From Balanoglossus misakiensis (taxonomy: Eukaryota > Animalia > Hemichordata): a stretch of 64,000 nt of DNA. The DNA is taken from contig CM082590.2 of assembly GCA_040954595.2 (NCBI GenBank), forward strand, positions 3,224,001 to 3,288,000, given 5' to 3'. The notes under the pieces were generated by a model, which ran no database searches, was not told the origin of the DNA, and was given only the letters and a program-made list of their open reading frames with translations. This document shows, in pieces, positions 1 to 59,182 of this stretch. Made by a program: the position numbers and the translations under genes. Position 1 is the stretch's first letter, and each line of letters begins with the position of its first letter.

Positions 1-1154
1 AAATTTCCATGGTTGCTTCCAAACAGCCTCGTTTATTTACCGATTTCTGTTGTGAGGCGCAGAACACATGATAGGCCTATGCGCATGAGACATTTTTCCA
101 CTAGACTCTGTAGATCGACGGATAGTTGTAAAATTTCATGGTTGCTTCCAAATACAGCCTCGTTTATTTAGCGATTTCTGTTGTGATGCGCATAACACAT
201 AGATAGGCCTATGCGCATAGGAACGTTTTCCACTAGACTTTGTAGATCGACGGATAGTTGTACAATGTCCATGGTTGCTTCCAAACAGCCTCGTTTATTT
301 ACCGAATTCTGTTGTGAGGCGCAGAACACGTAATAGGTCTATGCGCATAAGGAAGTTTTCCACCAGACTCTGTAGATCGACGGATAGTTGTAAAATTTCA
401 TGGTTGCTTCCAAATACAGCCTCGTTTATTTACCGATTTCTGTTGTGATGCGCATAACACATAGATAGGCCTATGCGCATAAGAACGTTTTCCACTAGAC
501 TCTGTAGATCGACGGATAGTTGTACAATTTCCATGGTTGCTTCCAAACAGCCTCGTTTATTTACCGATTTCTGTTGTGAGGCACAGAACACATGATAGGC
601 CTATGCGCATAAGACATTTTTCCACTAGACTCTGTAGATCGACGGATAGTTCTAAAATTTCCATGGTTGCTTCCAAACAGCCTCGTTTATTTACCGAATT
701 CTGTTGTGAGGCGCAGAGCACGTAATAGGCCTATGCGCATAAGAAAGTTTTCCACCAGACTCTGTAGATCGACGGATAGTTGTAAAATTTCCATGGTTGC
801 TTCCAAACAGCCTCGTTTATTTACCGATTTCTGTTGTGATGCGCAGAACACATAGATAGGCATATGTGCATAATAAAGTTTTCCACTAGACTCTGTAGAT
901 CGAGAGATAGTTCTAAAATTTCCATGGTTGCTTCCAAACACAGCCTCGTTTGTTTACAAAATTCTGTTGTGATGCGCAGAACACATATATAGGCCTATGC
1001 GCATAATAACGTTTTCCACTAGACTCTGTAGATCGACGGATAGTTGTAAAATTTCTATGGTTTCTTCCAAACAGCCTCGTTTATTTACCGAATTCTGTTG
1101 TGAGGCGCAGAACACATAGATAGGCATATGTGCATAAGAAAGTTTTCCACTATA
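1..1154. repeat. ~131-bp satellite DNA, left segment of the array
   Basis: Tandem monomers AAATTTCCATGGTTGCTTCCAAACAGCCTCG...TAGGCCTATGCGCATA...GACTCTGTAGATCGACGGATAG. This segment is nearly identical to 22539-23692 (offset 22538). Confidence 0.97.
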
Positions 1155-1188
1155 AACAGCACGAAAACAATTTCCCAATAACCGAAAA
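1155..1188 (+). repeat. Left terminal inverted repeat of the 21-kb transposon
   Basis: AACAGCACGAAAACAATTTCCCAATAACCGAAAA is the reverse complement of 22076-22109 with 2 mismatches. Confidence 0.93.
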
Positions 1189-1719
1189 CCAAAAATTTCA
1201 GGAAATTTCATTGAAATAAAGTTAAAATAGCAGTTAAATTATGAAGATGTATAGTTTTTACTTAGTAATCTTTTCTTTAGTTGCCTTTGCATATTCCATC
1301 GCCGATATTTTAAAGGAAAAATCTACTTTCATGTATTTATAAAGAAAACGAGTATGGTGAAAAAAAACACATTGATCATTGGTGCATAGACTGTCTATGA
1401 TTGGTGGGAACATTTTCACAAATTATTATTGAAAAACTTATTACTAACTTGTAGAAAATAAAAAATAAAAAAATTCATAGAAATAGTGATATCTATAGTC
1501 CACCATAGAAAAATTAACAATGAAAAAATCACGATGTGACATTCGAGGTTTTCAAACCAATAATTTTGTGTTTATTCTTACACATAAGGAGTTTTATACA
1601 GATAAGCCCATTATTCTTGCATAAAAAGCACTGATAAAAATTACAAAGTTGATTTACAGATATTTTCACAAAAAAATTATGTTTATGCTCATTAAAATTA
1701 AGATCTCATACAAGTTAAG

Positions 1720-2598
1720 AAAGTTCTTGCAAGGGACACACCCACCGATGTCAACACCCAACGATGTCAGAAATTTCTTGCAAGGGTCACACCCACAGAT
1801 GTCAGAAATTTCTTGCAAGGGACACACCCACCGATGTCAACACCCAACGATGTCAGAAATTTCTTGCAAGGGTCACACCCACCGATGTCAGAAATTTCTT
1901 GCAAGGGACACACCCACCGATGTCAGAAATTTCTTGCAAGGGACACACCCACCGATGTCAGAAATTTCTTGCAAGGGACACACCCACCGATGTCAGAAAT
2001 TTCTTGCAAGGGTCACACCCACCGATGTCAGAAATTTCTTGCAAGGGACACGCCCACCGATGTCAGAAATTTCTTGCAAGGGTCACGCCCACCGATGTCA
2101 ACACCTAACGATGTCAGAAATTTCTTGCAAGGGTCACACCCACCGATGTCAGAAATTTCTTGCAAGGGTCACGCCCACCGATGTCAGAAATTTCTTGCAA
2201 GGGTCACGCCCACCGATGTCAACACCCAACGATGTCAGAAATTTCTTGCAAGGGTCACACCCACCGATGTCAGAAATTTCTTGCAAGGGACACACCCACT
2301 GATGTCAACACCCAACGATGTCAGAAATTTCTTGCAAGGGTCACACCCACCGATGTCAGAAATTTCTTGCAAGGGACACACCCACCGATGTCAGAAATTT
2401 CTTGCAAGGGTCACACCCACAGATGTCAGAAATTTCTTGCAAGGGACACGCCCACCGATGTCAGAAATTTCTTGCAAGGGTCACGCCCACAGATGTCAGA
2501 AATTTCTTGCAAGGGACACACCCACCGATGTCAGAAATTTCTTGCAAGGGACACACCCACAGATGTCAGAAATTTCTTGCAAGGGACACACCCACAGA
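1720..2598 (+). repeat. Left subterminal 35-bp minisatellite (~23 units plus 16-bp partial units)
   Basis: Unit GATGTCAGAAATTTCTTGCAAGGG(A/T)CAC(A/G)CCCACC, with interspersed GATGTCAACACCCAAC short units. It explains the repetitive ORFs in all three + frames. Confidence 0.95.
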
Positions 2599-2826
2599 CA
2601 AAAATTGCAAAAATTATAAAAATGCACATTTTGCAACAATTTGAACAAAACCATGGTAACTCAGACCAACTTAAGAAATCAGCTTTTCACTTTCAGAAAT
2701 CAAGATTTGTTCAAAATATGTGGAAAAAGACAGAGAAAATGCATAAAAACAGAAAATTCATAATATTAGCTCAAACATACAGGACTGTATTAGGTGTACT
2801 GTATGAGCATCTTATGAAAACCCTTA

Positions 2827-5800
2827 TCAATCAAACTCCAGATCTTCTGCATCTGTTAGTCCAAGAAGAGATTGACATCTCACTTTGCAGTGAGAGATAC
2901 ATCTTTCATTGGTGTCTATTCCCACCACGTTGACATCATTTGTCAGCCCAGCAATTACAGCAGTGCCTGAAAAAATGCAATATATTTGTAAATGTTAATA
3001 CAGTCATTGCAAAAAATTGGGTCTTTGCATCACAGTATATATAATACAAAACAATGTCTCTACCTGTCACCTCTTTTCCATCAGTTGATATAATTTTACG
3101 TATATTACTGGAAAGAATACCAGCAGTACTATGGGTTCATTGACAGAAAAATAGTGTGCTAGCCTTATGGGATGACTGCATGTAAACTTTCAAAACAGAG
3201 AGAGACAATAATGATTATTGGCCTAACAGCCCTTCCACTCCACTCATGTTACGCAAAACGAGCACCAAAGGTAAACTTGCACAACCAGTCAAAATTTTTA
3301 CATCTGCAGGTTACTTTATTTTTCAAAAATGACTATGAGTGTTTTCCCCAGCAATCCCTGATAAATTATTGACTTATTTGCATAACGATGCAATTCATTG
3401 TTGTGTAAAATAAACATTGTTTTTTATGTTTTCCACAAATGAAAGGGGGTATTGGCCAACACTCATTAATATGAGAGAACACTGTGATGTCCATTCATCA
3501 GTAACCCCGTTTTGACTACAGTTGGCTAGATTGTGAGTGATGTAAATGTTCTGTATCTCACCTGCACCACATATACCATCCAGCATCCATGATCCTGGCG
3601 ATGCAAAGTCTTTAATGAGATACTCAAACAGGTTAAGCGGCTTTTGCCTTGAGCAAATTACAGCACCCTCCCCATCCTTCTCCAGAACATCCTGCTTCAC
3701 ACTCCAAAAATTATGCCTGCCAGCACAGGAGACTTGATCTTCTGTTATCTGTGCAGAAGTTGATGCATACGCAACAACCAATCCCTTGACGGAACGTGTC
3801 AAGGTCACCTTTGTCTCTGAAAGAAATATGAAAGACAAAATCAAATAATATTGCTGCTTATAATATTTTAATATGGACTTAATATAGTTAAATGGTAGGT
3901 GCAAGTGATAAGAGTGGTCTGATGTCAAAGGTCATAATTTTATATAAATATACCAGCTAGGTACTAAATATGTATACAAACCTCTTTTTGTGTTTTCCAC
4001 ATAGTAGAATCCATCTTCAACTCTCTTGAAACAGTGTGTGGCTTTCAGTTCTTGCTTGATTTTCACCAGGCTGTCAACTTCACAAAGCAGAATGACCCTG
4101 TAACTGCTGGTATTCGTATTTAGATTTTTCATGACAACTACAAATTCCCTAATATCATCCATTGACCAGTCCTGAAACACAATGTAAAATATTTGTAAAA
4201 AATGTTACTGCCAATCTCAGAAGGTGTAATTGGGTGAGATTATGGAATTAAATGACACCCTGTAATAAATCATTGCCCTGAAATCATTGCACTGGAAGGA
4301 ATTTATATAGCTATACGCCCCGTAGATGACTCTGATCACACTGTCTTTTTTAAACTCTATATCAAATGATAAAACAATACTATAGTTCGCAACCCCTTTG
4401 TTTGTAATCACCCCCTATAAATAATGGTGCAGTCCTACAAGGAGTGTAATATGAGACTCAACATGATCTCACCAATTACTTCAGATTTATGAGATTTACC
4501 AGTGAATATCCCAATATGTCTGCACGGAAAAACGTAGCTAATGTCTTCATTCTCACTTAACACTTAATTTTAAATCTGAGAAATGTTTGGTCTAAAAAAT
4601 ATGCTTTTTCCAATGCCTTAGCAATATTATAACCTTGCAATAAAAAATGAAATAACTCACACTGGGAACATCAACAACAGCCAGGTCGAAGCCATCACAG
4701 TTCACCCCATTTTCCTTGAGAATAGTCTGGTTCAACTTCAGTACATCTGCCTGAAAGATTATTCCTCGGTTCCCTCCATTACCAGGGTAAACGTCTGCTG
4801 GTCTGGCATTAAGGCCCTCAGCTTTCTCCCTCTGTACTCTTCGACAATACTGCACAAAGGTCTCTGGTATGGTCAGTCCATTGAATTTTAGGTTTGTAAA
4901 TCTTAGAAGTCGTTCCCGTGTTGTTTCATGAGGATATGTCTTTACTGCCTCTTCCCAATCGCACACTCCTGTCTCGTGAATGAACGCACGTTGAACACGT
5001 CTGAGTTTCGAAAGGACAGCGCTTTCCTGAGTGAACTGTTCAAGGGATAAATTGTGGTCTATAGCATCTTGAAGAAGGGACTGGATTGTCTTGACATCCA
5101 AAACTTTGAAATGCTTGAACTTGTAAGGTTTGAAGTCCGGTCTTGAAATCCTGTCTGATGATTTCAGCTTCTGGTCTTTGAGACCTCCATCTTCAAACAT
5201 CTCCAGGAACTGCCTGATTAATGAATATGTTGGATCATCATACGAAGCCAACATGCATGCTATGTCAACTGTCTGGTTGACTTTTTCCTACAGAAGACAA
5301 AAATATGACATGCCAATTATTTTGCAAAGCCAGCAAACTGGACTTTTCGGGGAAGCATTAATATTAATCAACCAGTTACTGTGAAAATAATTTCATGTAA
5401 CTTAACTATGGTGTATTACAATAATGTAAGTCTGAAGTGCAGTGAGAAATATAGAAGACAGGCAAGTACTAAAAATTACTATTATTTGGAACTTAACAGT
5501 GTCTCACAAACTTTGATTTATTTATGCATGTAATGTTGTATTTTATTTAAATATCAAACAGGGGGAGATGAAAAAAATATGTTGGGAAAATAAGTTCTGC
5601 CATATCTTAATACCGACATTCTTTAAAAGACACCACATTGAATTTCCACATTGACGAAAACAACTTACCTCATTGAGAATAATTCTACATGAATTCTTAA
5701 ACTCACTGGGCTGTATATCCTCCGGCATTTCACTCCGACTTGCTCGGCAGATTGCAACCTACCAAACAAACAAACCACTTGGTTTAGCATCTGTGAGAAA

Positions 5801-8800
5801 CCCTGAATACATTGGTTTATGGGCCCTGAATGCAGAATGTCATTTGCCCTATGCTGGAGGGCAAATGGCTTTTATTTAACAAGTTAATAGCCTTTACTTG
5901 ATGCATATTTCATATTAACAAAAAGAATCTTATTTCACATTTATAGCAAACAGATGAAGCTGTTTCTGTGATTGTTCCCTTTTAAGATGATTTTGCAATT
6001 TGCACTGATTTACACAACCTATTTATATGGTTACAAATACATGTATACTAATTAGTTCTCATTGAATGACCTGATAGAATATTAAAATACTAATATGGTC
6101 AACACCAGCTACATTCAAAAGTTTATTGGAATGAAATTACCTTGTCTCTGAATGTCATTGCATGACGGAATTCACCAGTTTTGTTGTGGCGAACACCTAA
6201 CCACTTCTTATCTTCATCTTGAAGTCCCACATACACTACACAGTTTAAAGTCTTGAATCGGTGATCACTTTGATGACGCTTTGCAAGTTCTCTTGTGGCA
6301 AGTAGGGTGTGTTGGCCACCAATGACATCATAGGCATAACCATTGACCTGAAAAGAAATACACTGCACTATTCAGTATTGGCAACACCAATGTGCAATCC
6401 CGCGCAGAACCAGACACCATTTTTAATAGTTTATGGACTGAAGCAGGGCTTGGGTAGAGACTATCTGATGCCAGGAACACACAGACATGTACACAGAAGT
6501 AATTGTTACTCTACTCTACTCCAATTCAAATCTGAAACATTCTGCTGTTAATTGTTGATAGGAACCCGGCTTTTGAAAGAAACCTTTCATCTTTTGCTGT
6601 ATTTATTGTGTACAGCATTAAACGTGAGAAAAATATAATGTAAAGTTGTGAACGACAGGTGACAGCCCATACAACACACCAAAACAAGGAAAACTTGGGT
6701 GAGCTGGAGGGTTGTCAACATCAAGAACATGTGCAGCAGAATTCAGCAAACTTAACTATCAGCCACGGTGAGAACACATGAATCAACGAAAAACATGACA
6801 TTAGATAAGTAAAATATTATTACACCATTCCAAAATGATAACTGGTCTCTCATGTGATATTTGATAACAGCCATACTCAGTATCTGTCTTTGCTACATAA
6901 GACGGGAATGTGACAATTTAAATATGCTTGCCTTTGTTCCATCAAACTGGGAGGTGTCTAGTAAATCCCTCACAGACAAACACAATGGCTGGTATGCTTC
7001 ATCTCTGTAATCCTCCATAGACTTGATTAGCTGCTTAAGAAATTGATCATCACTTTCACGGATTTGCTGGTCCCCTCCTTCTAATGCTCTTACACTTATG
7101 GTAAAATGTCCTGAAAGTGAACAGCAGTGTAAATAATTACATACATAACTCTCTCTCTCTCTAGAAATGTCAATATTTGATGCATATATTTCAAATATCA
7201 TCTGTCATAAGAATTACATAAGGTTATCAACTTGTTTGCTTTGCTATTCAAAATTGTTGAGATCCATGAAATTGTGAAAATTGACAGTAGTGACACAAAG
7301 AAATGTTTAATGGACATGAACTGCCAACAGGATTCACAGAAACAGTCCTTGGACCGTCTCCCATATATCCATGTAAGAACTAACAACCTTACCACAAAAT
7401 GCCTGATGTACACGGGTCTGAACATCACTTTTAAGTTCCTCTACATACTGCCTTTTCAACGTAACAGCACTAACTGAATCAGTCGCTTGGGTCAATTTCC
7501 GCTTCTTAGGACGTACCCTATAGGGAAGAAAAATGAGGATTTTTTTTAAATTGATTTTTTCACTGATTTCATGGTTGTGTTCATAACATTGAAAGCAGAA
7601 CCATTTGTAAATGAATTTTAAATGACACAAAATGACAATATCTACTTTTTTACGCACCCACATAAAAACAAGAGAAGACATAATAAATTTAGTACAAAAG
7701 CTATCAAAGTAATGGAGATTCTAAAGGAAATGAACCTCAGTACAATATAGAACAGGCTTGGGAAACAGTCATTACATGGTTCAAACACAGCCTTCAAAGC
7801 AAAAATAGTGATTCCCAGAAATTATAAAATTTGCAAAGTAAGGTCACTATAAGGTATAGAAATGTCAATATTGATGGATATATTACAAATTAAATCAGCC
7901 ATGCACTTCCTATTTGTCGTTAAACATACAAAGTTGATCCTGTGTTTATGTCCTCTCACAGTGGCACAATGCATAAAAAAAAACTTACATTCTACCCGAA
8001 GCTGGACGGCCACTACTGGGGCGTGCATGTGGGCTGTCAAGTGAACTAGTAGATCTGCCACTACAGTTTGGAGAACTTGTGTTGAAAATGATTTCACCAT
8101 CATGATCTTCTTGATCCTCCTCGTCATCGGTACCCCCTATAGACATTGGACTATCATTAAATTGAGCTCGCCAGTCAGTAAAGACAGCTACCATTTCTCC
8201 TGGGGTGCTTGCCTCCTTGAACTTTCTGCTGAACGTGGACCGATTCCATTCAAAGTATTTCCTCTCCAACACAAAAACAAAATTCTGTCCAGATGACTGC
8301 AGAAATTCAAACTGTAATGTAAAAGTATTTTAGAAGAAATTAAAACGGTAATAATGCACGCGGTTATCAACATCACACCGGCTGCACGTAGCTCGACGGT
8401 TTATGCGCTTGTGAAGTTGTAGCAGATGACAACTGTTTACATAGACGCAGGCTGAAGTGTCGACTCGCGGCACGGTGCCAATTTGGACCGATGATAACAG
8501 GAGCGATCATCCGCACTTCAGACCATCCAACCCACAGCACAGGCCGCACCATGGTTGAGAGCGCTAGCTCTCAACTACGGTGCGACATGTAGGTCGTACG
8601 GGAAGCGTTAAAATTAGATTCACCGTGAAACACTTGTCGTCACTACATAGGCAGAATTGCTTGTACGTTTGTCTAAAAAAATAAACAGCGGTTATTTGAC
8701 AACGCGATCATAATGTATATGTTGTTGTTTGGTCAGTGCGGGCACTGCATGTGCATAGACTTAGCCGTGCGTACAGGTCTGTATGTTCCCGGCGTTACAC

Positions 8801-9126
8801 CATGTAACACCGGGAACATACATACCTGTACGCACGGCTAGCATAGACTGTACATCATGTACTGCAATGTTATGGCAGCAATTTCACGAATTAATCATCA
8901 TACACAGCGCACAAGGTGCTCCTTGGTTTAAAACTGCTGACAGTGACAGCGACCAAAGTCTTACCTTTAACGCGTCCGGCTTGTCTTTAAAAACAGACAT
9001 CGAAATAACCTCTTCAAACTCCACCCCAGTCTTCTTGTTTCGCATCCTAAATTTCTTGCCATTTTCGATAGAATACAAGTACGCTGCGTTGCTGGACTCT
9101 TCCAACCACCACTTCTTTCGCCCCAT
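2827..9126 (-). CDS. ParB/Srx-like domain fused to a beta-class N6A/N4C DNA methyltransferase-like domain; 10 exons, ~760 aa
   Basis: Phase-consistent exons 9126-8965, 8296-7989, 7517-7393, 7110-6932 (GC donor), 6347-6141, 5758-5669, 5287-4661, 4171-3982, 3816-3562, 2966-2827, with no internal stops. ParB-like motif: IRESDDQFLKQLIKSM...QPLCL...YDVIGGQHTLLA. MTase motifs: FDLAVVDVPS (motif IV position), then QKPLNLFEYLIKDFASPGSWMLDGICGAGTAVIAG...VVGIDTN (motifs X-I-II). Confidence 0.8.
8762..8840. mobile_element. 79-bp hairpin MITE with 9-bp TSD in intron 1 of the ParB-MTase gene
   Basis: Near-perfect palindrome TAGCCGTGCGTACAGG...CCTGTACGCACGGCTA (38-bp arms, 2 mismatches). Flanked by GCATAGACT at 8753-8761 and 8841-8849. 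Confidence 0.8.
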
Positions 9127-9179
9127 GTCGAATATGCAGACTGTGGCACACTAACTTGTGTTCGCAGTAAACATGGTAT

Positions 9180-12100
9180 ATATACACTTGGGAAACCCAT
9201 GATTCGACGAAACCCTAAAGTTGGTGTCAGACACGCTTGATTCGGTGGGCCGTTGACGGCCGTCTTGTCGCGTGGTGTTGGTCAAGCTACACCTGGCGAG
9301 TTTCCTGCATTTTTCTCGTCAACAATGCACATGCACGATGTCCCACCAGAAAAGTGCGAATCGTCCTGCTAATCGCCCTGCTGTTGAACTTCCTGTCATG
9401 TCACTGGTTAAAGTTCATGACGTTCGACCAACGCACGCGCGCACACAACAAAAGTTGATTTTAAGACAAAACTTTTGCTCCCAAACAGAGAAAAACATTA
9501 TTAACATTTAATTGCCGTACAAGAGAAACATATTCTGACTAACAGTAGCCTAGACTTGCTCCAAGTCTATGGGCTTCATTATGTGTAGGGAACGCGACGC
9601 TACCCGAAACCACAAGCTCAGTCGCAAATTCGAAACTCACCTCACTATTAAAAACACGCTCAAGGCAAGCATTCACGCAAAAAGTATTGCATTTATTTAT
9701 TAAGACAAAAAAAACACCGAAAATATTGAGTATTGATATTTAAAAATTACCAAGCGACTAGTGGGCTAGTCTAACAGTAGCCCTACGTACAGGTCTGTGC
9801 GTTCGCGGCGTTTCCAGGCCGTGTAACGCCACGAACACACAGGCTTACCCCTGCATGTACGTACGTAGGGCTAACTTCACAGAAGCTGTAATGTGATGGG
9901 CACGTCATTTATTAACGGAGCAGTTTTATTTCAAAAGAATACACGTCCCATTTTCGATACACAGATAAAGAATTATTCTGTAACTAACTCAGATTTACAA
10001 AATGGGGGGATTTAAATAGCCGAGGCTATTGACAGGCGCCTGTCACGGCACTCCAATTCAAAAACCATACAAACTCGTGTTCGGTGTATAGGCCTATCTA
10101 CACTTGGAAAACCTTTGACTCACAAGTTGGTGTACTCATACAAGCTTGTTTAGGGGATATTTGACTGCTGTCTTGTCGCGTAGTTTGGTCAAGCTACACC
10201 TGGCGAGTTTCCTGCATTTTTCTCGTCAACAATGCACATGCACGATGTCCCACCAGAAAAGTGCGAATCGTCCTGCTAATCGCCCTGCTGTTGAACTTCC
10301 TGTCATGTCACTGGTTAAAGTTCATGACGTTCGACCAACGCACGCGCGCACACAACAAAAGTTGATTTTAAGACAAAACTTTTGCTCCCAAACAGAGAAA
10401 AACATTATTAACATTTAATTGCCGTACAAGAGAAACATATTCTGACTAACAGTAGCCTAGACTTGCTCCAAGTCTATGGGCTTCATTATGTGTAGGGAAC
10501 GCGACGCTACCCGAAACCACAAGCTCAGTCGCAAATTCGAAACTCACCTCACTATTAAAAACACGCTCAAGGCAAGCATTCACGCAAAAAGTATTGCATT
10601 TATTTATTAAGACAAAAAAACCACCGAAAATATTGAGTATTGATATTTAAAAATTACCAAGCGACTAGTGGGCTAGTCTAACAGTAGCCCTACGTACAGG
10701 TCTGTGCGTTCGCGGCGTTTCCAGGCCGTGTAACGCCACGAACACACAGGCTTACCCCTGCATGTACGTACGTAGGGCTAACTTCACAGAAGCTGTAATG
10801 TGATGGGCACGTCATTTATTAACGGAGCAGTTTTATTTCAAAAGAATACACGTCCCATTTTCGATACACAGATAAAGAATTATTCTGTAACTAACTCAGA
10901 TTTACAAAATGGGGGGATTTAAATAGCCGAGGCTATTGACAGGCGCCTGTCACGGCACTCCAATTCAAAAACCATACAAACTCGTGTTCGGTGTATAGGC
11001 CTATCTACACTTGGAAAACCTTTGACTCACAAGTTGGTGTACTCATACAAGCTTGTTTGGGGATATTTGACTGCTGTCTTGTCGCGTAGTTTGGTCAAGC
11101 TACACCTGGCGAGTTTCCTGCATTTTTCTCGTCAACAATGCACATGCACGATGTCCCACCAGAAAAGTGCGAATCGTCCTGCTAATCGCCCTGCTGTTGA
11201 ACTTCCTGTCATGTCACTGGTTAAAGTTCATGACGTTCGACCAACGCACGCGCGCACACAACAAAAGTTGATTTTAAGACAAAACTTTTGCTCCCAAACA
11301 GAGAAAAACATTATTAACATTTAATTGCCGTACAAGAGAAACATATTCTGACTAACAGTAGCCTAGACTTGCTCCAAGTCTATGGGCTTCATTATGTGTA
11401 GGGAACGCGACGCTACCCGAAACCACAAGCTCAGTCGCAAATTCGAAACTCACCTCACTATTAAAAACACGCTCAAGGCAAGCATTCACGCAAAAAGTAT
11501 TGCATTTATTTATTAAGACAAAAAAAACACCGAAAATATTGAGTATTGATATTTAAAAATTACCAAGCGACTAGTGGGCTAGTCTAACAGTAGCCCTACG
11601 TACAGGTCTGTGCGTTCGCGGCGTTTCCAGGCCGTGTAACGCCACGAACACACAGGCTTACCCCTGCATGTACGTACGTAGGGCTAACTTCACAGAAGCT
11701 GTAATGTGATGGGCACGTCATTTATTAACGGAGCAGTTTTATTTCAAAAGAATACACGTCCCATTTTCGATACACAGATAAAGAATTATTCTGTAACTAA
11801 CTCAGATTTACAAAATGGGGGGATTTAAATAGCCGAGGCTATTGACAGGCGCCTGTCACGGCACTCCAATTCAAAAACCATACAAACTCGTGTTCGGTGT
11901 ATAGGCCTATCTACACTTGGAAAACCTTTGACTCACAAGTTGGTGTACTCATACAAGCTTGTTTGGGGATATTTGACTGCTGTCTTGTCGCGTAGTTTGG
12001 TCAAGCTACACCTGGCGAGTTTCCTGCATTTTTCTCGTCAACAATGCACATGCACGATGTCCCACCAGAAAAGTGCGAATCGTCCTGCTAATCGCCCTGC

Positions 12101-14270
12101 TGTTGAACTTCCTGTCATGTCACTGGTTAAAGTTCATGACGTTCGACCAACGCACGCACGCACACAACAAAAGTTGATTTTAAGACAAAACTTTTGCTCC
12201 CAAACAGAGAAAAACATTATTAACATTTAATTGCCGTACAAGAGAAACATATTCTGACTAACAGTAGCCTAGACTTGCTCCAAGTCTATGGGCTTCATTA
12301 TGTGTAGGGAACGCGACGCTACCCGAAACCACAAGCTCAGTCGCAAATTCGAAACTCACCTCACTATTAAAAACACGCTCAAGGCAAGCATTCACGCAAA
12401 AAGTATTGCATTTATTTATTAAGACAAAAAAACACCGAAAATATTGAGTATTGATATTTAAAAATTACCAAGCGACTAGTGGGCTAGTCTAACAGTAGCC
12501 CTACGTACAGGTCTGTGCGTTCGCGGCGTTTCCAGGCCGTGTAACGCCACGAACACACAGGCTTACCCCTGCATGTACGTACGTAGGGCTAACTTCACAG
12601 AAGCTGTAATGTGATGGGCACGTCATTTATTAACGGAGCAGTTTTATTTCAAAAGAATACACGTCCCATTTTCGATACACAGATAAAGAATTATTCTGTA
12701 ACTAACTCAGATTTACAAAATGGGGGGATTTAAATAGCCGAGGCTATTGACAGGCGCCTGTCACGGCACTCCAATTCAAAAACCATACAAACTCGTGTTC
12801 GGTGTATAGGCCTATCTACACTTGGAAAACCTTTGACTCACAAGTTGGTGTACTCATACAAGCTTGTTTGGGGATATTTGACTGCTGTCTTGTCGCGTAG
12901 TTTGGTCAAGCTACACCTGGCGAGTTTCCTGCATTTTTCTCGTCAACAATGCACATGCACGATGTCCCACCAGAAAAGTGCGAATCGTCCTGCTAATCGC
13001 CCTGCTGTTGAACTTCCTGTCATGTCACTGGTTAAAGTTCATGACGTTCGACCAACGCACGCGCGCACACAACAAAAGTTGATTTTAAGACAAAACTTTT
13101 GCTCCCAAACAGAGAAAAACATTATTAACATTTAATTGCCGTACAAGAGAAACATATTCTGACTAACAGTAGCCTAGACTTGCTCCAAGTCTATGGGCTT
13201 CATTATGTGTAGGGAACGCGACGCTACCCGAAACCACAAGCTCAGTCGCAAATTCGAAACTCACCTCACTATTAAAAACACGCTCAAGGCAAGCATTCAC
13301 GCAAAAAGTATTGCATTTATTTATTAAGACAAAAAAAAACACCGAAAATATTGAGTATTGATATTTAAAAATCACCAAGCGACTAGTGGGCTAGTCTAAC
13401 AGTAGCCCTACGTACAGGTCTGTGCGTTCGCGGCGTTTCCAGGCCGTGTAACGCCACGAACACACAGGCTTACCCCTGCATGTACGTACGTAGGGCTAAC
13501 TTCACAGAAGCTGTAATGTGATGGGCACGTCATTTATTAACGGAGCAGTTTTATTTCAAAAGAATACACGTCCCATTTTCGATACACAGATAAAGAATTA
13601 TTCTGTAACTAACTCAGATTTACAAAATGGGGGGATTTAAATAGCCGAGGCTATTGACAGGCGCCTGTCACGGCACTCCAATTCAAAAACCATACAAACT
13701 CGTGTTCGGTGTATAGGCCTATCTACACTTGGAAAACCTTTGACTCACAAGTTGGTGTACTCATACAAGCTTGTTTGGGGATATTTGACGGCCGTCTTGT
13801 CGCGTAGTTTGGTCAAGCTACACCTGGCGAGTTTCCTGCATTTTTCTCGTCAACAATGCACATGCACGATGTCCCACCAGAAAAGTGCGAATCGTCCTGC
13901 TAATCGCCCTGCTGTTGAACTTCCTGTCATCTCACTGGTTAAAATTCATGACGTTCGACCAACGCACGCTCGCACACAACAAAAGTTGATTTTAAGACAA
14001 AACTTTTGCTCCCAAACAGAGAAAAACATTATTAACATTTAATTGCAGTACAAGAGAAACATATTTTGACTTCACAGAAGCTGTAATCCGGGGCTGTAAT
14101 ATGATGAGCACGTCACTTTTAAACAGGGGTAGTCGCACGCAGTGTGTGAGTTTAAACAGTTTCTCCCACCTGTCCTAAGTTCAGTTTGATGTCAAAAGAA
14201 TACACGCGGTACGTTCAATTTTCGATACACAGATAAAGACTGGTTTTGTAACTAACTTAGATTTACGTAA
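9180..14270. repeat. ~906-bp tandem repeat (about 5.5 units) between the two divergent genes
   Basis: Equivalent positions at 11022, 11928, 12833 and 13740 give periods of 906, 905 and 907. Internal units are near-identical; the first and last partial units are diverged. Confidence 0.96.
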
Positions 14271-14684
14271 ATAGATCTCTTAATGTACGCATATTACATG
14301 AAATACACTTCAATCGTAGTTATTATAGTGTTCATTTAATTGAAAAATAGGTATTACTTTAATAGTGACATTTCATTGACCTCTTGACGCTCTTTCGTTC
14401 GAAGGACAAGCGAAACAAATTGGTATAGATTTCCACTTTATTGGGACAAAAGTGATTACATGTACTTTGGTTCGATGGCTTTTGACTTTCGCGGACTGCG
14501 TAACGGCTTGCTCGGCAGCTGCAATTCCAGTGGCGGGGGTCGGTCCCGGACTACAACTGACCCAAGGGACTGACATCCGCTACTGTAGTTACTGGTAGCG
14601 ACAGACCCCCTCGCAAACCGCGACAGACATTCGCGCCGCGCGCTGGTCACGTGAATCACGTAGGCCTAATTAACGACGCGACAC

Positions 14685-17600
14685 ATGACCGGACCTGCAG
14701 ACGCGGCTGACCAGCCCGAACGTGACACCTCAAATACTCATGGTCGCTCTGGAGTCTATTATGACATGGCAAGCCTAGAAATATTGTTTGATTCGTCCGC
14801 TTCATCGGAAGAAATACTGTTTGATTCGTCCTCGTCCTCAGAAGATTTTTATGATAATGCAACGAACCCGAACGAAGAGATTGTAATATATGACATCTCA
14901 TGCACCGATGATGATTCTGACTCAATGTGCTATAGTTCACAAACTGCCGCCATCGACTCGGTTGAATGTGCATACCCACTAACTAAACGTGTAACGTCCA
15001 CACCTAAGAAGAGACGCATCAGTGAGCCGGTAAGGGACCCGTTTGATGTATTACGTCAACCCTGCTGTGAAGATTGGTGCCTTAGAAACCTGACTATAAA
15101 CGAAATGCTTGAGTGTGATCGACATATGAAAAACCTAGAGAACGAGTCCAGACAGAAACAGTTCATATTAAGATGCTTTCGAGAGAATTCTTACAAGAGG
15201 TTCATAAAATCAAAACCTGTGGCGGAAACAAATATGAGAATAGCCGGAAGAGCAGTGTGTCGACAGGCTTGGCAACTGGCATACAACGTGTCTGATTATC
15301 GTTTTGCAGAATGTGAAAAGTTATTTCTGCAAGACATTGTGACTGTTCGTCACGGCAATTCCGGCAAAAGTCACATGACGGACAAAACTACAGAAGCGAT
15401 TGCCTGGATGCGTTTCTATTTCGAAAGAATGGGCGACTACATGCCCAATGATGCAAACAGGGTGATCCTTCCCTGTTCGTGGACCAAACTCATGGTTTAC
15501 CAACGAATGAAAGACGAGTTCAGTTCACGAGGGGCCGGTCCCAGAGACATGATCTGTTACGATTATTTCTGCAGAGTATGGAAGATTCACCTTCGGGAAT
15601 TCGTCATCGGAAAGGTAAGACTTTACAGTGACACTGTGCCAAATTCTTCCCTGTATTTAAATCTGTATGATCGCACCGATGTGTTTACACAAGATTTCCC
15701 ACTGATCACCCTCCGCCACTCCTAGAAACAATGGTATCATCCAAGCGTGACGTAAAATACTGACTAGTACGCCATTTTGTCCTTTGTTTTGTCGGAGATT
15801 TGTGGTGAATGTACCGCTTGTCTGTGTTCCTGTCATGCCGGTGGCATACAAAATGTTTCCGTTGTCCCCAATGTCCGTCTCTTTGCACCGTATAGTTTCA
15901 ATGATTAACGCATGCAACTGACGAGTATTACCACATCAATAATAGTTTTGCTTCTTTGCCGAAGGTAAGACATGAAGGGGTCCGAATATCTGAGCTCTGC
16001 GTGGCAGGGCTGTGTTGTTACAGTGTGGGTGGAGGCTCGCCGTAACAACACAGCCCTGCCACACAGAGCTACGAATATCTCTGCGTACAGATCTGTGTGT
16101 TCCCGGCGTTAAGTACGGTGGAGGCCGTGTAACGTCGGGACCGCACAGACCTGTACGCAGAGCTAGGGTCCGAAGTGACTATGGCCGGTAGCAGGCTCGA
16201 GGCTCTTCCGGGCGCATTGCTAAGGTTTACACGACTTTGGAGGCTACGACGGGTGACTGACGAAGTGTATGTATCTGATCACTAATCATGTTTTTTTTTT
16301 TTATAGGGCAGCGAGTTTGTGTGCTGTGAAACATGTGTTCGGCTGGATGAACAATTTGCAAAAGCAAGAGCTGAGTTTGAAAGAAGTCGAGTCAAAGGTC
16401 TAGTTGCACTTCACTTGAAACAAGTAGAGTAAGTAAACAAGAAATTTATTAAACTGTCAACAATAACAATGCAGTTTACACATATCAACATTTAATGTTT
16501 CAACTTGCTTTTAGGAGAAGAACAAAAATTTGCATTTGCCGCATAAATCAAAATGGTGACAGATCACCACAAATGGCTGATATCGTGCTTTGATTTGTAA
16601 AGTACTTCACCTTGAATTGCAGTTTTGTTAGTACCCATGATAATCTTTTTTTAAAAACCCATAGTCACATTTTTGCACCACACCCACATAAGCACAGTCA
16701 ATACATGAGTGTGTGTGTGTGTGTGTGTGACCTCATTTGTTTTGCAGAAATAGATGTGAAATTGATAACTTGTAAAGAAGTATGTCCACATCTCAATAAA
16801 TTAGTAATCGATTCTCAAATTTTTTTTTTCTTTTAAAGGAATGAACGCAAGCGTTATCACTACCACCGTGAAAAAGCAGAAAGGGAACCAGATGAAATTA
16901 TGGCTATCATTCAAGATGGCATGGATCAAAGCAAAACAGATATACCCCACCTGATCAAAGAAGACAAGGCAACATCAAATTTGTGGAGATTGCGGACACA
17001 TGTTACAGGTACTAGTGAGAGATACTTTGCTTCATTGCTCTTTTTGCATTTAAACTATCGGTACACTTCCATCTAGTCATTTGTTAAGAACAAATTTGTT
17101 CATCATCAGTCCCATCAACATAATATCACATTTTAACTAAAGTGTTTTATAAATATTCTTTAATGTTTAGCTTCCATTTTGTGTATGTGTGTTGAAGTTA
17201 TGTGAATTTTAATCTGAAGGAAGTTCTGCCAATATTTCACAAACCACACATTTTACCACCACTATACTATAATATAATTTTCTTTTAACAGGCAATATAC
17301 TGCATACTGGAGTGTCATCTGGGAAAATACCATATGTTTATATAGACATGAACCAGTTTCCACACGACAGCAACTTGACCATGAATATCCTACTAGAAGT
17401 ATTGGTAGAATCCAAAGATCATCTAGCCAAAACATTGTATTTGCAACTTGACAATTGTTTCCGGGAGAACAAGAACCGATTCTTGTTGAGTCTCATGGCC
17501 TTGCTGATACAACTGGATACATTTGAAGAAGTAAGTGCTTCATTGTTTAACCTATGGTAAATTCTAGGCACATTAATTATAAAATCCAAAATGAATACCA

Positions 17601-20086
17601 TTCATGAAGAACAATTCTTCATTGTTAGTTTGTAAAAAATGAGGTTGGCATATGCTCAAAGCAGTGATTTCATAGTTTAACAATATACGTATTATTGTAA
17701 TCATTACAGATTTATGTGAATTTTCTGCCTGTGGGACATACGCATGAAAATGTTGATCAGATGTTTTCGAAGATCTCAGTGGGATTAAAAAGATCAAATG
17801 CCTACACAGTTGAAGGTAAGTTGATAAGAACAATAGAGAACAGAGACAATTTCAATTGATGTCAGATCCAAGAAACTGAACAGGAACACAAATAGTGTGC
17901 ATAATATTCAACAGAAAATGTGCTGCCGGGAAAAAATAGATCAGCTGAAAAGTAAATAACTTTAGCAGTTTTTCAGTAATTGAAACATTGGTAAGCATAT
18001 TCTGATTAACGGTCTACATTCTTAGACTGATAACCAGCCAGCCGGCCGGCCAGATAAAAGTGTATGCACTATGTTTCATTTTACAACATCATGTTAAATA
18101 CTCATTTGCTGATTATACCTATTTTCTCAGATTTAATCTCAATCATTGAAAGCAGCTACACACCAGCCATCAACGTAGCAATATCAACAAAACTGCTGAA
18201 TATCAAGGAATGGCTTATTCCTCACATGCACAAAAATTTTAAAGGCCATTCCCGTCCGCACAACTTCCGCTTTAGGAAAGTGGATGATAAAGCCTATATG
18301 CAGTACAGAGAATGGTGTACAGATCCATGGCAGCCGATGCCAAAGGATGGTGTTGAGATTCCTGGTCTTCTGTGTTTGATGGTAAGTAGTAATTACTTTT
18401 GATGACATGTTCACACTATAAGAATTAAGGGTGTACAAGTGGTAAAACAAATTATTGTCCCTTTTTCAAATTGTTAATTTTTGGATTCTCCTTTGTAATT
18501 ATCTAAATGTGTAGTAAAATGTTTGGGTATCTGTGCTCATTTTTGAGATACAAGGCCATGAACTTTTCCATCATGAGGGAAAATGCTGACACGGCATTTT
18601 AAATTCTGAGAACAAAATAATTTAATGCAGTTTATCTCAAAATTAAGCTTGGCGACAATATAGTTTTATTTCATCACACACGGGTTACCTTCGTACAATA
18701 GAAAATTAGAGGATTGTGATATTTCTGGGATTATGATTTATCTACTGAATTGTGTAATTCATATCTGTACCCATGTTGTGTCTGCATTTCTTCTCTGTAT
18801 ATTTTCATGAAACAAATAATCAACCAACTAATGCATTTATATACTTTGATTCATTTAGACTATCCCAAACATTGATAAACCACCTGAATGGGTTGTACCA
18901 AGCCTAATGAAACTAGACGTGGATGGCTTATTAAAGAGCATTCCAGCTGGTTTCGCCCACAGAATGACCAGTCAAGCTGTCCAAACCTGGAAAACCTTCA
19001 TGGAAAAAATAACAGACTTGGAGAAGGTTGGTCTACATATAATTCCATTCATATCCTTTTTTCAATGTGTTTTGACTACACTTACATGAAGCAAGGGAGA
19101 CAAGGAATGTACTGGGCGTTTTAGCGTACCAGAAGTAGTAAAACCAAAATTTGCTTTTGATTCATAGATTCGCAAGAGCATATGGTGTGGGCTAATGAGC
19201 ATAAGCGCCTTTGAGTATGACACTTGTTGTAGATATTGGCGCTATACAAATTTCTCTGATTGATTGATTGAATAGAAAATAACCCAACCCAACCCAACCA
19301 AACTGTTAAAATTACATTCAACTCCATCCTTGCCAACATTCCCTTTTATAATTGAAGTTATAACATGTATTAAAATATGTCTTTCAGGTTCCTAACAGTG
19401 TACCCACGCGATGGCAGATCCATATACTAAAAGAAGCAGCACTTAGAAAACAACATGCACGAAATGAAAATACTACAGATATGCCAGAGGAACTGAGGCA
19501 TATCCAAGAGAAACTAACAGCTCCATGTCCTCCAGTAAGTGTTTTATTGGTCTGTAACAGAATAAGTATAATTTAAATACAGTTACAAAATGTGCTATTG
19601 TATTGTGCAGAATGGGTTGTGCAAAGTTTCTACTCCATACTGATTCACTCAGTATTGCAGTATTATTTGTAACATCTGCAATGACCTTCTGTCTTCTATC
19701 TTTTTGATGAATAGGTGACAATTGGTAATCAAAACAAAGACCAGGAAGCCCCAGCAGTGCAAGAAATGAACAGTTTTGATACTGTTGACCAGGGAATGCT
19801 GATTGCAGTCTGGGCACCAGACAATGATGCCAGGCCACAAATAGCACAGGTTATAGAGAGAAATGACAGTGAGCTCAACATCCACTGGTTAGTTGGCAAG
19901 TACAATGGTATGTGGAAGGAGGCATATCATGGCTTTGCAACCAACAGAAGGCCATGGGTGGACACCATTCCTGTTGAGTCGTGTATTCTTTGGGATTTCA
20001 CCCTTACAAAGAAAGGATGCCTGAAAAAAGCAACAGCTGATGAACTGAAGAAAAAGTACTCAGAACTTGATGAAGCTGCTGGGTGA
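14685..20086 (+). CDS. Sola-like (Sola1-related, DUF7869-type) DDD transposase; 9 exons, ~834 aa (807 aa from ATG 14766)
   Basis: Phase-consistent exons 14685-15614, 16307-16428, 16839-17008, 17292-17530, 17710-17815, 18131-18381, 18859-19026, 19388-19534, 19715-20086. Motifs: HGN, DYMP...LP, FVCCETC, IIQDGMDQSKT, LYLQLDNCFRENKN, FLPVGHTHENVDQMFS. NLS-like TPKKRR. Lies between the TIRs. Confidence 0.85.
15987..16165. mobile_element. Two nested hairpin MITEs with 9-bp TSDs in transposase intron 1
   Basis: The outer element is flanked by GGGTCCGAA (15978-15986 and 16166-16174). The inner hairpin 15992-16071 is flanked by CGAATATCT (15983-15991 and 16072-16080). The outer element resembles the 8762-8840 hairpin. 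Confidence 0.75.
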
Positions 20087-21273
20087 GTGTTTTTAGTGTA
20101 ACCAGTGATTTTATGTTTTTCACATTAGTTGAAAACACCTGGTTTTAAATCACTGATAAAGTGTGCAACAAATAATTTGTGAATAACCGAATAGATAAAA
20201 TTGTATTTTGAACATTATTTCACTCAACGACTGTAGTACTTGTGTGTATATTTTCACTCAGAACTGTAATTTGACTGTAATTTTTTAAGCATTACAAATC
20301 TGTACAGTTAATTTTCGCAACAAGCTTTCAGTGTATTTCGAATGGCACTTCAGACAGATTTCTCTCTGCGAAATTTCCCGTATTTTGTATACGGATGCCA
20401 TGTGTTACATGGTCACTACATTTTTTAAGAACAGGTGTAATGGTAACCAAATTTAAATTGTGTAATAATTTGTACATATAAGTTGGGGACAATTTCTGTT
20501 TATTGTTAAGAAATTCTCTAAAAAGGCTGAATGAGTTGCCTGTCTGATAGTTCTCAAAGTTGGTATAAATAATCTTGAGGATGTCTTTATTTCAATTTCA
20601 AAGCATTATATTGTCATATTTGGTATGGGTTTATAGTGTAATGCAATTGAAAAAAAATAGCCATGATTTCATTGACTAAGAACAAATTCACAAGTGCAAA
20701 ATATATTTCATTTACCTTATACAGAATTTTTCAGGAGTGGCCTAAAGATGAGTTTTATCCTTCATTTTCAATGAGGAAAATCTTAAAAGATTTTCATGTA
20801 TATTTTTCACTTACTGATCTTATGTGTGTATTTAAAGGCATACCTCAGTCACCTCCAATATATATGTATATGCCCATATATGTCAGAAATGGCATATTTA
20901 ACCGTTATAAAGAACAGATGGTGGCTAGATCTCAATTTGCCATGGTATCTATAGTTTATTTTTCATAGGTGACCGTATATCTTTTAAGTTTTCAAGGTTC
21001 AGATAAAGTATTTCAACCCATCTTGAAAATGTGAATGACACATAGTGTGTTATTGACATTTATTTACACACTGTTTGCATTTGAATAAATGCCATAAAAA
21101 CATTACATGTTTGTGTCAGTTCTGTTTATTACCTTATTATCAAAAATCTGATAGAAGACTGTACTTTATAAACATCCTTAGCAGTTTGTGAACATAGAGT
21201 GAACCTATAACAAGGAAAACTGATATGCCTTGATTTTTTTTCAGATGGGACATGTCTAAAATATTTCCTGCAA

Positions 21274-21766
21274 TGCAAGGGACGTACCCACCCATGCACA
21301 CGCCCACCCATGCAAGAAATTTCTTGCAAGGGACACGCCCACCCATGCAAGAAATTTCTTGCAAGGGACACACCCACCCATGCAAGAAATTTCTTGCAAG
21401 GGACAAGCCCGCCCATGCAAGAAATTTCTTGCAAGGGACACGCCCACCCATGCAAGAAATTTCTTGCAAGGGACACACTCACCCATACAAGAAATTTCTT
21501 GCAAGGGACACGCCCACCCATGCAAGAAATTTCTTGCAAGGGACACGCCCACCCATGCAAGAAATTTCTTGCAAGGGACACACCCACCCATGCGAGAAAT
21601 TTCTTGCAAGGGACACGCCCACCCATGCAAGAAATTTCTTGCAAGGGACACGCCCACCCATGCACACGCCCACCCATGCAAGAAATTTCTTGCAAGGGAC
21701 ACACCCACCCATGCAAGAAATTTCTTGCAAGGGACACGCCCACCCATGCAAGAAATTTCTTGCAAC
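21274..21766 (+). repeat. Right subterminal 35-bp minisatellite (~13 units)
   Basis: Unit CATGCAAGAAATTTCTTGCAAGGGACAC(A/G)CCCACC contains the perfect 18-bp palindrome TGCAAGAAATTTCTTGCA. It is homologous to the left array and in the same orientation. Confidence 0.95.
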
Positions 21767-22075
21767 TGACAAGCCGACACATGTTGGAACTCAACATATT
21801 TCGAAAAAGAATTTAGTAACGACCAATTAATGAAATTTCACTTGTAAAGTAATAAAATGACTTTTGCTTCTTCATTTTCACATAGTTACCATGGAAAATT
21901 ATATGACTTAATATGTTATATTTTAAATTTAGTTATTTCCATAAGAATATCTTTAACTTTCCAGTATGTTCAACCACTTTTGACTAAATCAGAAATTCAC
22001 AGTGAAATTATCAAGTACAACATAACTGAATTTAATAACCTGATATTTCTGTAGAAATTTTTGAAAAAAGTGTGT

Positions 22076-22109
22076 TTTTCGGTAATTGGAAAATTGTTTT
22101 CGTGCTGTT
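22076..22109 (-). repeat. Right terminal inverted repeat of the 21-kb transposon
   Basis: TTTTCGGTAATTGGAAAATTGTTTTCGTGCTGTT, followed by TATA and resumption of the satellite. Confidence 0.93.
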
Positions 22110-25100
22110 TATAGACTCTGTAGATCGAGAGATAGTTCTAAAATGTCCATGGTTGCTTCCAAACACAGCCTCGTTTGTTTACAAAATTCTGTTGTGATGC
22201 GCAGAACACATATATAGGCCTATGCGCATAATAACGTTTTCCACTAGACTCTGTAGATCGACGGATAGTTGTAAAATTTCCATGGTTGCTTCCAAACAGC
22301 CTCGTTTATTTACCGAATTCTGTTGTGAGGCGCAGAACACATAGATAGGCATATGTGCATAAGAAAGTTTTCCACTATAGACTCTGTAGATCGAGAGATA
22401 GTTCTAAAATGTCCATTGTTGCTACCAAACACAGCCTCGTTTGTTTACAAAATTCTGTTGTGATGCGCAGAACACATATATAGGCCTATGCGCATAAGAA
22501 CGTTTCCACTAGACTCTGTAGATCGACGGATAGCTGTAAAATTTCCATGGTTGCTTCCAAACAGCCTCGTTTATTTACCGATTTCTGTTGTGAGGCGCAG
22601 AACACATGATAGGCCTATGCGCATGAGACATTTTTCCACTAGACTCTGTAGATCGACGGATAGTTGTAAAATTTCATGGTTGCTTCCAAATACAGCCTCG
22701 TTTATTTAGCGATTTCTGTTGTGATGCGCATAACACATAGATAGGCCTATGCGCATAAGAACGTTTTCCACTAGACTTTGTAGATCGACGGATAGTTGTA
22801 CAATGTCCATGGTTGCTTCCAAACAGCCTCGTTTATTTACCGAATTCTGTTGTGAGGCGCAGAACACGTAATAGGTCTATGCGCATAAGGAAGTTTTCCA
22901 CCAGACTCTGTAGATCGACGGATAGTTGTAAAATTTCATGGTTGCTTCCAAATACAGCCTCGTTTATTTACCGATTTCTGTTGTGATGCGCATAACACAT
23001 AGATAGGCCTATGCGCATAAGAACGTTTTCCACTAGACTCTGTAGATCGACGGATAGTTGTACAATTTCCATGGTTGCTTCCAAACAGCCTCGTTTATTT
23101 ACCGATTTCTGTTGTGAGGCACAGAACACATGATAGGCCTATGCGCATAAGACATTTTTCCACTAGACTCTGTAGATCGACGGATAGTTCTAAAATTTCC
23201 ATGGTTGCTTCCAAACAGCCTCGTTTATTTACCGAATTCTGTTGTGAGGCGCAGAGCACGTAATAGGCCTATGCGCATAAGAAAGTTTTCCACCAGACTC
23301 TGTAGATCGACGGATAGTTGTAAAATTTCCATGGTTGCTTCCAAACAGCCTCGTTTATTTACCGATTTCTGTTGTGATGCGCAGAACACATAGATAGGCA
23401 TATGTGCATAATAAAGTTTTCCACTAGACTCTGTAGATCGAGAGATAGTTCTAAAATTTCCATGGTTGCTTCCAAACACAGCCTCGTTTGTTTACAAAAT
23501 TCTGTTGTGATGCGCAGAACACATATATAGGCCTATGCGCATAATAACGTTTTCCACTAGACTCTGTAGATCGACGGATAGTTGTAAAATTTCCATGGTT
23601 GCTTCCAAACAGCCTCGTTTATTTACCGAATTCTGTTGTGAGGCGCAGAACACATAGATAGGCATATGTGCATAAGAAAGTTTTCCACTATAGACTCTGT
23701 AGATCGAGAGATAGTTCTAAAATGTCCATGGTTGCTTCCAAACACAGCCTCGTTTATTTACCGATTTCTGTTGTGATGCGCATAACACATAGATAGGCCT
23801 ATGCGCATAAGAACGTTTTCCACTAGACTCTGTAGATCGACGGATAGTTGTACAATTTCCATGGTTGCTTCCAAACAGCATCGTTTATTTACCGAATTCT
23901 GTTGTGAGGCGCAGAACACGTAATAGGTCTATGCGCATAAGGAAGTTTTCCACCAGACTCTGTAGATCGACGGATAGTTGTAAAATTTCAAGATTGCTTC
24001 CAAATACAGCCTCGTTTATTTACCGATTTCTGTTGTGATGCGCATAGATAGGCCTATGCGCATAAGAACGTTTTCCACTAGACTATGTAGATCGACGGAT
24101 AGTTGTACAATTTCCATGGTTGCTTCCAAACAGCCTCGTTTATTTACCGATTTCTGTTGTGAGGCGCAGAACACATGATAGGCCTATGCGCATAAGACAT
24201 TTTTCCACTAGACTCTGTAGATCGACGGATAGTTCTAAAATTTCCATGGTTGCTTCCAAACAGCCTCGTTTATTTACCGAATTCTGTTGTGAGGCGCAGA
24301 GCACGTAATAGGCCTATGCGCATAAGAAAGTTTTCCACCAGACTCCTTAGATCGACGGATAGTTGTAAAATTTCCATGGTTGTTTCCAAACACAGCCTCG
24401 TTCATTTATAAAATTCTGTTGTGATGCGCTGAACACATACATATGCCTATGCGCATAAGAAAGTTTCCCACTAGACTCTGTAGATCGACGGATAGTTCTA
24501 AAATTTCCATGATTGCTTCCAAACACATCCTCGATTGTTTACAAAATTCTGTTGTGATGCGCAGAACACATATATAGGCCTATGCGCATATGAATGTTTT
24601 CCACTATACTCCGTAGATCGACAGATAGTTCTAAAATTTCCATTGTTGCTTCCAAACAAAGCCTCGTTTGTTTACAAAATTCTGTTGTGATGTGCATAAC
24701 ACATGATAGGCCTATGCGCACATGAACGTTTTTCCACTAGACTCTGTAGATCGACGGATAGTTCTAAAATTTACATGGTTGCTTCCAAACAGCCTCGTTT
24801 ATTTACCGATTTCTGTTGTGAGGCGCAGAACACGTAATAGGCCTATGCGCATAAGAAAGTTTTCCACCAGACTCTGTAGATCGACGGATAGTTGTAAAAT
24901 TTACATGGTTGCTTCCAAATACAGCCTCGTTTATTTACCGATTTCTGTTGTGATGCGCATAATACATAGATAGGCCTATGTGCATAATAAAGTTTTCCAC
25001 TAGACTCTGTAGATCGAGAGATAGTTCTAAAATTTCCATGGTTGTTTCCAAACACAGCCTCGTTCATTTACAAAATTCTGTTGTGATGCGCTGAACACAT

Positions 25101-49774: not shown

Positions 49775-49806
49775 TTTTTTTTGTCTACATGTATTTACAT
49801 ATGGAA

Positions 49807-58800: not shown

Positions 58801-59142
58801 CACCCACATAGGATTATAACTAGAGTTTCCTGTTCATCTAAATAATACTGGCATAGTGATTGTCCATACAATGCACACTACAGTTGGTATAGTTTAACAA
58901 TAATTGTCAAGAATATACCATATTTAGTTCACACTCACCCACTTTAGATATAAAGCTGAGCCAACAAACTTTGAAGTAGAGGATATCAATCCACTGCAAG
59001 ACTTCAATGCACAGACTTGCCTAATAGATTTTTTGCCAAGGGCCAGAAGCTGGTTCAAAAAAAACAGACATGTTGTAGAGTCACCAAGGAGGCTTTCCCC
59101 ATCTTCTTCTGTGACAACTCTCTGCAGACCCGGTGATGGTGT

Positions 59143-59182
<40 letters not shown>

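Follow-up and report, generated by a model that had tools for sequence, protein, structure and literature searches.

The transposon closest in design to the one examined here is Sola1-1_Ec32 of the brown alga Ectocarpus, a 21.5-kb element with a 4-bp target-site duplication (TSD) ending in A, which carries a gene for a ParB-like protein with an N4/N6 methyltransferase on the strand opposite its transposase (PMC12477816). In the red alga Bostrychia, a giant DNA transposon of the Plavaka type likewise has a ParB-like accessory gene, PAG3, with adjacent inverted-repeat tandem arrays, and its authors propose by analogy with ParB that PAG3 binds them (bioRxiv 10.1101/2025.02.11.637652). The same preprint names VANDAL as the only transposon for which binding and modification of its own sequence are known; in Arabidopsis its accessory protein VANC binds tandem motifs, and demethylation has been shown (PMC5735166). 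Here we analyse a 64,000-nucleotide window of the hemichordate Balanoglossus misakiensis (assembly GCA_040954595.2, contig CM082590.2, positions 3,224,001 to 3,288,000), which contains a 20,955-bp DNA transposon (1155..22109) with a ParB-methylase gene, a transposase gene and a tandem array of 35-bp units near each end. We tentatively favour the reading, to which we give somewhat less than an even chance, that these arrays are VANC-like self-recognition sites for the element's own ParB-methylase.

The element combines a DDE transposase and terminal inverted repeats (TIRs), a 4-bp TSD and AAC-type termini (AACAG here and AACCG in Sola1-1_Ec32, with four of five letters in agreement), and a ParB-methyltransferase gene on the opposite strand. 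By this match of design with Sola1-1_Ec32 we class it as a Sola1-like DNA transposon. The two differ in host (brown alga versus animal), in TIR length (282 versus 37 bp) and in the size of the accessory protein (1104 versus 765 amino acids), and the likeness is one of design, taken from a description whose available part mentions no arrays at the ends (PMC12477816). The Bostrychia Plavaka element is of the EnSpm/CACTA superfamily, its ParB domain is fused to a 2OG oxygenase with the methylase on a separate gene, and its arrays are described beside PAG3 rather than paired at both ends; binding is a proposal there too, and the association of a ParB-like protein with transposon arrays is in that sense already in print (bioRxiv 10.1101/2025.02.11.637652). 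VANDAL is Mutator-like and VANC is an unrelated protein (PMC5735166). What it shares with the present locus is an element-specific motif in non-coding tandem repeats together with an accessory gene, and we infer by analogy that the element may work as VANDAL does with VANC. Our literature search, incomplete for journals and Repbase reports, turned up no publication describing elements of this kind in animals or arrays paired in the same orientation.

Two co-oriented arrays with a shared core

The left array (1718..2596, plus strand) comprises 23 units and five 16-bp partial units made of spacer only, and lies 563 bp from the end of the element and 231 bp past the stop codon of the ParB-methylase gene. 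Its first unit has one core change, its last is cut short, and the partial units produce five 51-bp steps. The right array (21259..21766, plus strand) lies 343 bp from the other end and 1,173 bp past the transposase stop; it comprises 13 units preceded by a degenerate one at 21259, with regular units from 21315 to 21766, the last of which ends after column 15, and has two partial units, one inside it and one at its edge. The original prediction, made from the sequence of the window, had described two arrays in direct orientation with a common consensus, a 35-bp period, 16-bp partial units and array-specific heads, and all of this was found. It had also stated that each array is homogenised separately, which holds because units differ far less within arrays (1.35 differences on the left, 1.32 on the right) than between them (4.67, minimum 3). 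Comparison of the regions flanking the two arrays revealed only the TIR in common, plus short matches of doubtful meaning. With respect to transcripts, the first canonical poly(A) hexamer past the methylase stop (minus strand, 2827-1571) lies beyond the left array, so this array may be in the methylase 3' untranslated region; the transposase has a poly(A) hexamer at 21084, ahead of the right array.

The perfect 18-bp palindrome reported for the right unit is present in 11 occurrences, all in the right array, and arises in 7e-5 of shuffled units. As the conserved unit of the two arrays, however, it fails, since all three fixed differences between left and right sit in its left arm; 12 of 14 arm positions are palindromic in the right unit versus 9 of 14 in the left. 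What both arrays have in common is a pair of overlapping short palindromes (10 bp and 8 bp) within columns 1-16, which had gone unnoticed; such a pair occurs in 0.2% (2e-3) of shuffled units, and the 18-bp palindrome is the right array's extension of the shared 10-bp one. A search for the 18-bp core elsewhere in the window, allowing up to three mismatches, returned none, and the unit consensus had no match (0) among viral contigs.

Among the 33 interior units, none of the 18 core columns (1-18) varies, in contrast to 10 of the 17 spacer columns (19-35; Fisher p 1e-4); this test omits three core-bearing edge units and the degenerate first right unit. Upon removal of CpG-type columns, 6 of 13 spacer columns remained variable (p 2e-3). 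All seven partial units are duplications of spacer that leave the core whole. Invariance extends to columns 17-18 and to the point where the two palindromes join, which is not symmetric; on the left, the core has been preserved despite the break in its long arm. Because the core is invariant while the spacer varies, we regard it as a candidate binding site; the pattern suggests a protein-binding site with a free linker. Helical phasing was rejected as an explanation of the spacing, as 35 and 51 bp correspond to 3.3 and 4.9 turns. Two single core-like sites, possibly relics, were missed by the ungapped unit profile: one at 1202..1216 (plus strand), just inside the left TIR and 47 bp from the left end, and one at 21832..21847 (plus strand) in the right spacer. 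Each terminal spacer holds one such site, both are on the same strand, and no others occur. Their chance probabilities (~6e-4 and ~5e-4, respectively) refer to a pattern picked after seeing it, and we take the pair as a weak hint.

Other copies were sampled through contigs from two sequencing runs of a single sample (X1 and X2), none of which spans an array. At the right end of a second insertion, a near-identical array edge, spacer and TIR run into a T run instead of satellite; for the left end, the contigs begin the element at 1155, preceded by a T run, and carry the left spacer into the first array unit. These contigs match the window at both termini and at the outer edge of each array, orientation included, so that all of these features recur in a second copy inserted elsewhere. 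We infer from equal depth that the two T-run ends represent one locus. X2 also contained loose ends joining the element to satellite, which end in a doubled GATC and were set aside as likely Hi-C ligation products. Contig depths were 69 for the right spacer and 706 for the right-type unit in X1, and 131 and 394 in X2; the X1 values roughly fit arrays confined to the element and are not a copy number.

Diverged sequences were seen as well. A 690-bp contig (X1/X2) matches the left end (1155-1270) at 94% over 116 bp and then diverges, and left-spacer variants differ by ~5-8%, so related families or derivatives exist. In a 500-bp X2 contig only 37 bp (21829-21865) around the right core-like site matched, with six mismatches, which is either a diverged right end or chance. 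A metagenome scan yielded four loci of 1.5-2.8 kb from 75 candidate stretches, none of which reached an end of the element, held an array or matched the methylase, and the Saccoglossus transposase homolog P0002 had no match among viral contigs.

The ParB-methylase as a candidate reader of the arrays

The accessory gene (2827..9126, minus strand) has 10 exons and encodes a 765-residue protein without internal stop, 86% identical to the Ptychodera flava protein P0001. Both genes of the element are intact and divergent, with GT/AG introns (one GC donor). Fold assignments were made on an AlphaFold model of P0001 built with 144 homologs (predicted local distance difference test score = 83.7). In agreement with the claim that the element encodes its own ParB-like protein, residues 204-327 adopt a predicted ParB fold (Myxococcus ParB, 7bnk; Z 11.8, root-mean-square deviation (RMSD) 2.3 over 94 residues). 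The C-terminal domain resembles beta-class amino-methyltransferases, with CcrM (6pbd) the best match (Z 15.2, RMSD 3.2 over 177 residues), followed by M.BceJIV (Z 13.8) and PvuII (Z 13.4); PF01555 was matched in 9 of the 144 family members (best E 7e-12), and the glycine-rich S-adenosylmethionine-binding motif lies at residue 713 of the window protein model, as in a permuted methyltransferase fold. Between the two domains, the helical region up to residue 455 is a loose structural match for the DNA-binding domain of ParB (7bnr; Z 11.9, RMSD 10.3, range 10-11), and the HTH_ParB profile matched weakly in one of the 144 members (E 0.0068). The accessory family counts 376 relatives at E up to 0.001. 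Among 20 that were looked up, 15 come from hemichordates, sea cucumbers, anemones or a nemertean, one from Chara and, judging by accession, one from a dictyostelid. ParB-linked adenine methylases have been listed in chlorophytes and chytrids (PMC4738411).

The reading of the arrays as VANC-like self-recognition sites can be put as follows. A probably dimeric accessory protein would bind the palindromic core, and slippage and unequal exchange would multiply one site into an array, raising occupancy at each end. The bound protein might then mark or shield the ends, as VANC does for VANDAL, so that the element stays mobile. The site of one end would have been copied to the other, which would make the direct orientation a record of copying, and the arrays would later have diverged, with the right palindrome becoming more complete. 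Because the core is palindromic and reads nearly alike on both strands, inverted arrays would not have been selected for, and the direct orientation is unremarkable. The proposal that the arrays load the element's own protein stands to this extent: they are subterminal in a real transposon, that transposon encodes a ParB-fold protein, and their core looks like a binding site. The parS-like features of the proposal do not stand, as described below.

Several observations weigh against this reading. The catalytic motif of amino-methyltransferases is (D/S/N)PP(Y/F/W). The window protein has instead D-x-P, with W two or three positions further along, and 7 of the 12 homologs that cover the site keep D-x-P; because of this departure from DPPY the methylase may be dead. 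Common descent links the units within an array, and the column test therefore treats them as more independent than they are; template switching, moreover, can keep palindromes perfect without selection. The core is also not invariant in every copy, because two X1 contigs (depth 305 and 421) have changed cores, at about columns 9 and 15 as read by eye. There is a long distance between the arrays and the CpG-rich promoter zone (8.1-16.1 kb), in which a separate family of long hairpins is an equally good candidate target for the accessory protein. Finally, the window copy is the one complete element in which both arrays were viewed.

Self-targeting by algal ParB-methylase accessory genes is a proposal so far; an intact, recent copy with a defined 18-bp candidate site at both ends makes it testable with one protein and one oligonucleotide. 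The accessory family is spread through marine invertebrates, and an active enzyme, if there is one, would be a transposon-borne source of N4-methylcytosine (4mC) or N6-methyladenine (6mA) in animals, where 4mC has so far been tied to the bdelloid N4CMT. A more ambitious version holds that animal transposons of this lineage possess a bacterial-type reader-writer, in which the ParB-fold amino-methyltransferase would load on the palindromic end arrays, mark its own element with 4mC or 6mA and bring the two distant ends together for the transposase, in deuterostomes and cnidarians. We consider this rather improbable; if true, it would amount to a private epigenetic mark and an end-pairing device in the genomes of both groups.

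Competing explanations for the arrays

The arrays could instead be subterminal transposase-binding sites that raise occupancy at each end, like the 12-bp repeats of Muta1, whose units likewise stand in tandem near the ends and combine conserved cores with linkers that vary, and of which extra copies increase binding and excision (PMC5499845). The placement of the arrays, 563 and 343 bp from their respective ends, and of one core-like site at 47 bp from the left terminus would suit such a role, and the palindromic core softens the problem posed by orientation. However, the Muta1 repeats that the transposase binds belong to the TIR and are hence inverted (PMC5499845), whereas here the polar units share one strand with both single sites, and hundreds of bases separate the array units from TIRs in which the core is absent. 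We regard this explanation as possible, if doubtful.

Neutral origin is the second competitor, and one we hold to be unlikely. A hairpin-prone 35-mer would have reached the other end in a single duplication and grown into arrays by slippage, its palindromes being kept by template-switch repair. Separate homogenisation and ragged array edges are what such a history would leave, and the element also contains a newly formed 907-bp tandem array, while the satellite around it has recently undergone duplications of kilobase size. All three fixed differences raise the palindromy of the right unit, and the changed cores in other contigs point the same way. Against it stand the invariance of columns 17-18 and of the asymmetric palindrome junction and the survival of the left core despite its broken arm; moreover, there are arrays at both ends, and arrays also accompany ParB-like genes in an unrelated superfamily (bioRxiv 10.1101/2025.02.11.637652). 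If the arrays are neutral, they are an ordinary minisatellite in an interesting element.

True parS analogues, in which the ParB domain would act as a nucleotide-gated clamp that spreads and bridges ends 21 kb apart, appear very unlikely. The likeness to bacterial ParB/parS comprises the ParB/Srx fold and palindromic, repeated sites (PMC12704722). To the predicted fold and the loosely aligned helices can be added a nucleotide pocket with conserved residues: R221 (32 of 35), G273 and G274 (50 of 52), H276 (45 of 52) and N318 (47 of 50). The arginine of the GxxR motif (Box II) is nevertheless T in the window protein and R in 2 of 52 aligned homologs, in a register placed by eye from the motif, and its loss abolishes nucleotide (NTP) binding in the ParB folds tested (PMC12704722). 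No P-loop family that could represent a ParA-like partner was found among the 17 open reading frames of the element that were scanned, and the two gene models account for the conserved exons. The methylase occupies the place of the ParB dimerisation domain, which brings the protein closer in design to the orphan ParB-methyltransferase fusions of mobile elements (PMC12704722). As to the conserved palindromic site of ~16 bp that parS would provide, a perfect 18-bp palindrome is present on the right side only, and the shared core consists of the two overlapping short palindromes. Because defining features, the GxxR arginine and a ParA partner, were looked for and not found, the element is not a ParABS system; a parS clamp driven by cytidine triphosphate is not needed to explain the arrays and is likely absent.

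That the direct arrays are recombination cassettes, deleting or circularising the 19.5-kb interior to leave a 1.4-kb element with one hybrid array, is the least credible of the suggestions made: direct orientation and ~87% identity make it geometrically possible, but none of 36 units is mixed, column 30 keeps its own letter in 23 of 23 left and 13 of 13 right units, and the longest exact tract shared is 29 bp, which argues against frequent exchange between the arrays, and no hybrid occurs among the contigs listed, though these cannot span an array.

Element boundaries, transposase and surrounding repeats

The element ends in AACAG...CTGTT, at a TIR pair where contigs from other copies start and stop with other flanks. 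The left TIR (1155..1191, plus strand) is 37 bp long with three mismatches to the right TIR (22073..22109, minus strand), and weaker similarity extends to ~49 bp. TATA duplications flank it at 1151..1154 and 22110..22113. Eleven satellite monomers (22372, 23685 and nine more, within 22372-36462) represent the empty site with a single TATA; this variant was the insertion target, most monomers having TA or CA there. A 2-bp TA duplication was rejected in favour of TATA because other copies begin at 1155. The second insertion, in a T run, fits a 4-bp TSD and cannot fix its length. TSD rules for Sola elements have been given (PMC3845634, PMC3627910); the two sites, TATA and a T run, depart from the AWWT preference of insect-type Sola1 (PMC3845634), and Sola1-1_Ec32, filed as Sola-1, has a target biased to end in A (PMC12477816). 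We also considered long terminal direct repeats of the KolobokP kind, in which 450-660-bp direct repeats with their own TIRs form the element ends (PMC9587614), and rejected them, the arrays here being internal minisatellites.

The host satellite, with 131-133-bp monomers, occupies 1..1150 on the left and 22114..42685 on the right. The left flank is 99.7% identical to 22539-23690, which is not special: six other pairs of satellite stretches match over 750 bp with at most two mismatches.

The transposase gene (14766..20086, plus strand) has nine exons and encodes 807 residues from the chosen ATG, without internal stop and 68% identical to Saccoglossus P0002. Of the relatives found, this protein and Ptychodera P0001 are the nearest to the two gene products, so that the host is likely an acorn worm. 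DUF7869, which we take to be a marker of Sola1, was matched in three exons (E 1e-28, 7e-14 and 2e-11).

Between the two genes lie about 5.5 near-identical tandem copies of 905-907 bp (9243..14266), each with a long hairpin, in a CpG-rich zone. The copies are 0-4 mismatches apart and duplicate the region upstream of the methylase start; the array is read as a very recent expansion, with some chance of an assembly error. The hairpins belong to an element-specific family found at 6465-6500, 8762-8840, 9778-9873 (with four more copies to 13498) and 15993-16165, that is, in the first intron of both genes (8762..8840 in the methylase gene, two at 15993..16165 in the transposase gene) and in each 907-bp unit. 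Their arms measure 36-40 bp, and none of the 17 arms lies outside the element. Within each hairpin both arms carry matching changes; the hairpins may be tiny MITEs (miniature transposable elements with inverted repeats) or another binding site. The observed/expected CpG ratio lies at 0.2-0.6 across most of the two gene bodies and at ~1.0-1.3 over 8.1-16.1 kb, a pattern like that of two host genes whose bodies are methylated and whose common promoter is not.

Further mobile elements lie to the right of the satellite. A 16.7-kb Kolobok-like element (46172-62852) has a 31-bp perfect inverted repeat beginning with TTAA, a P2RX7_C (KolX-like) exon at 47778-48101 and nested MITE-like inverted repeats. 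Nested within it on the minus strand is a Gypsy-type long terminal repeat (LTR) retrotransposon (51536-56536) with identical 154-bp LTRs. A zf-RVT frame at 44588-45682 (minus strand) is likely a fragment of a long interspersed nuclear element.

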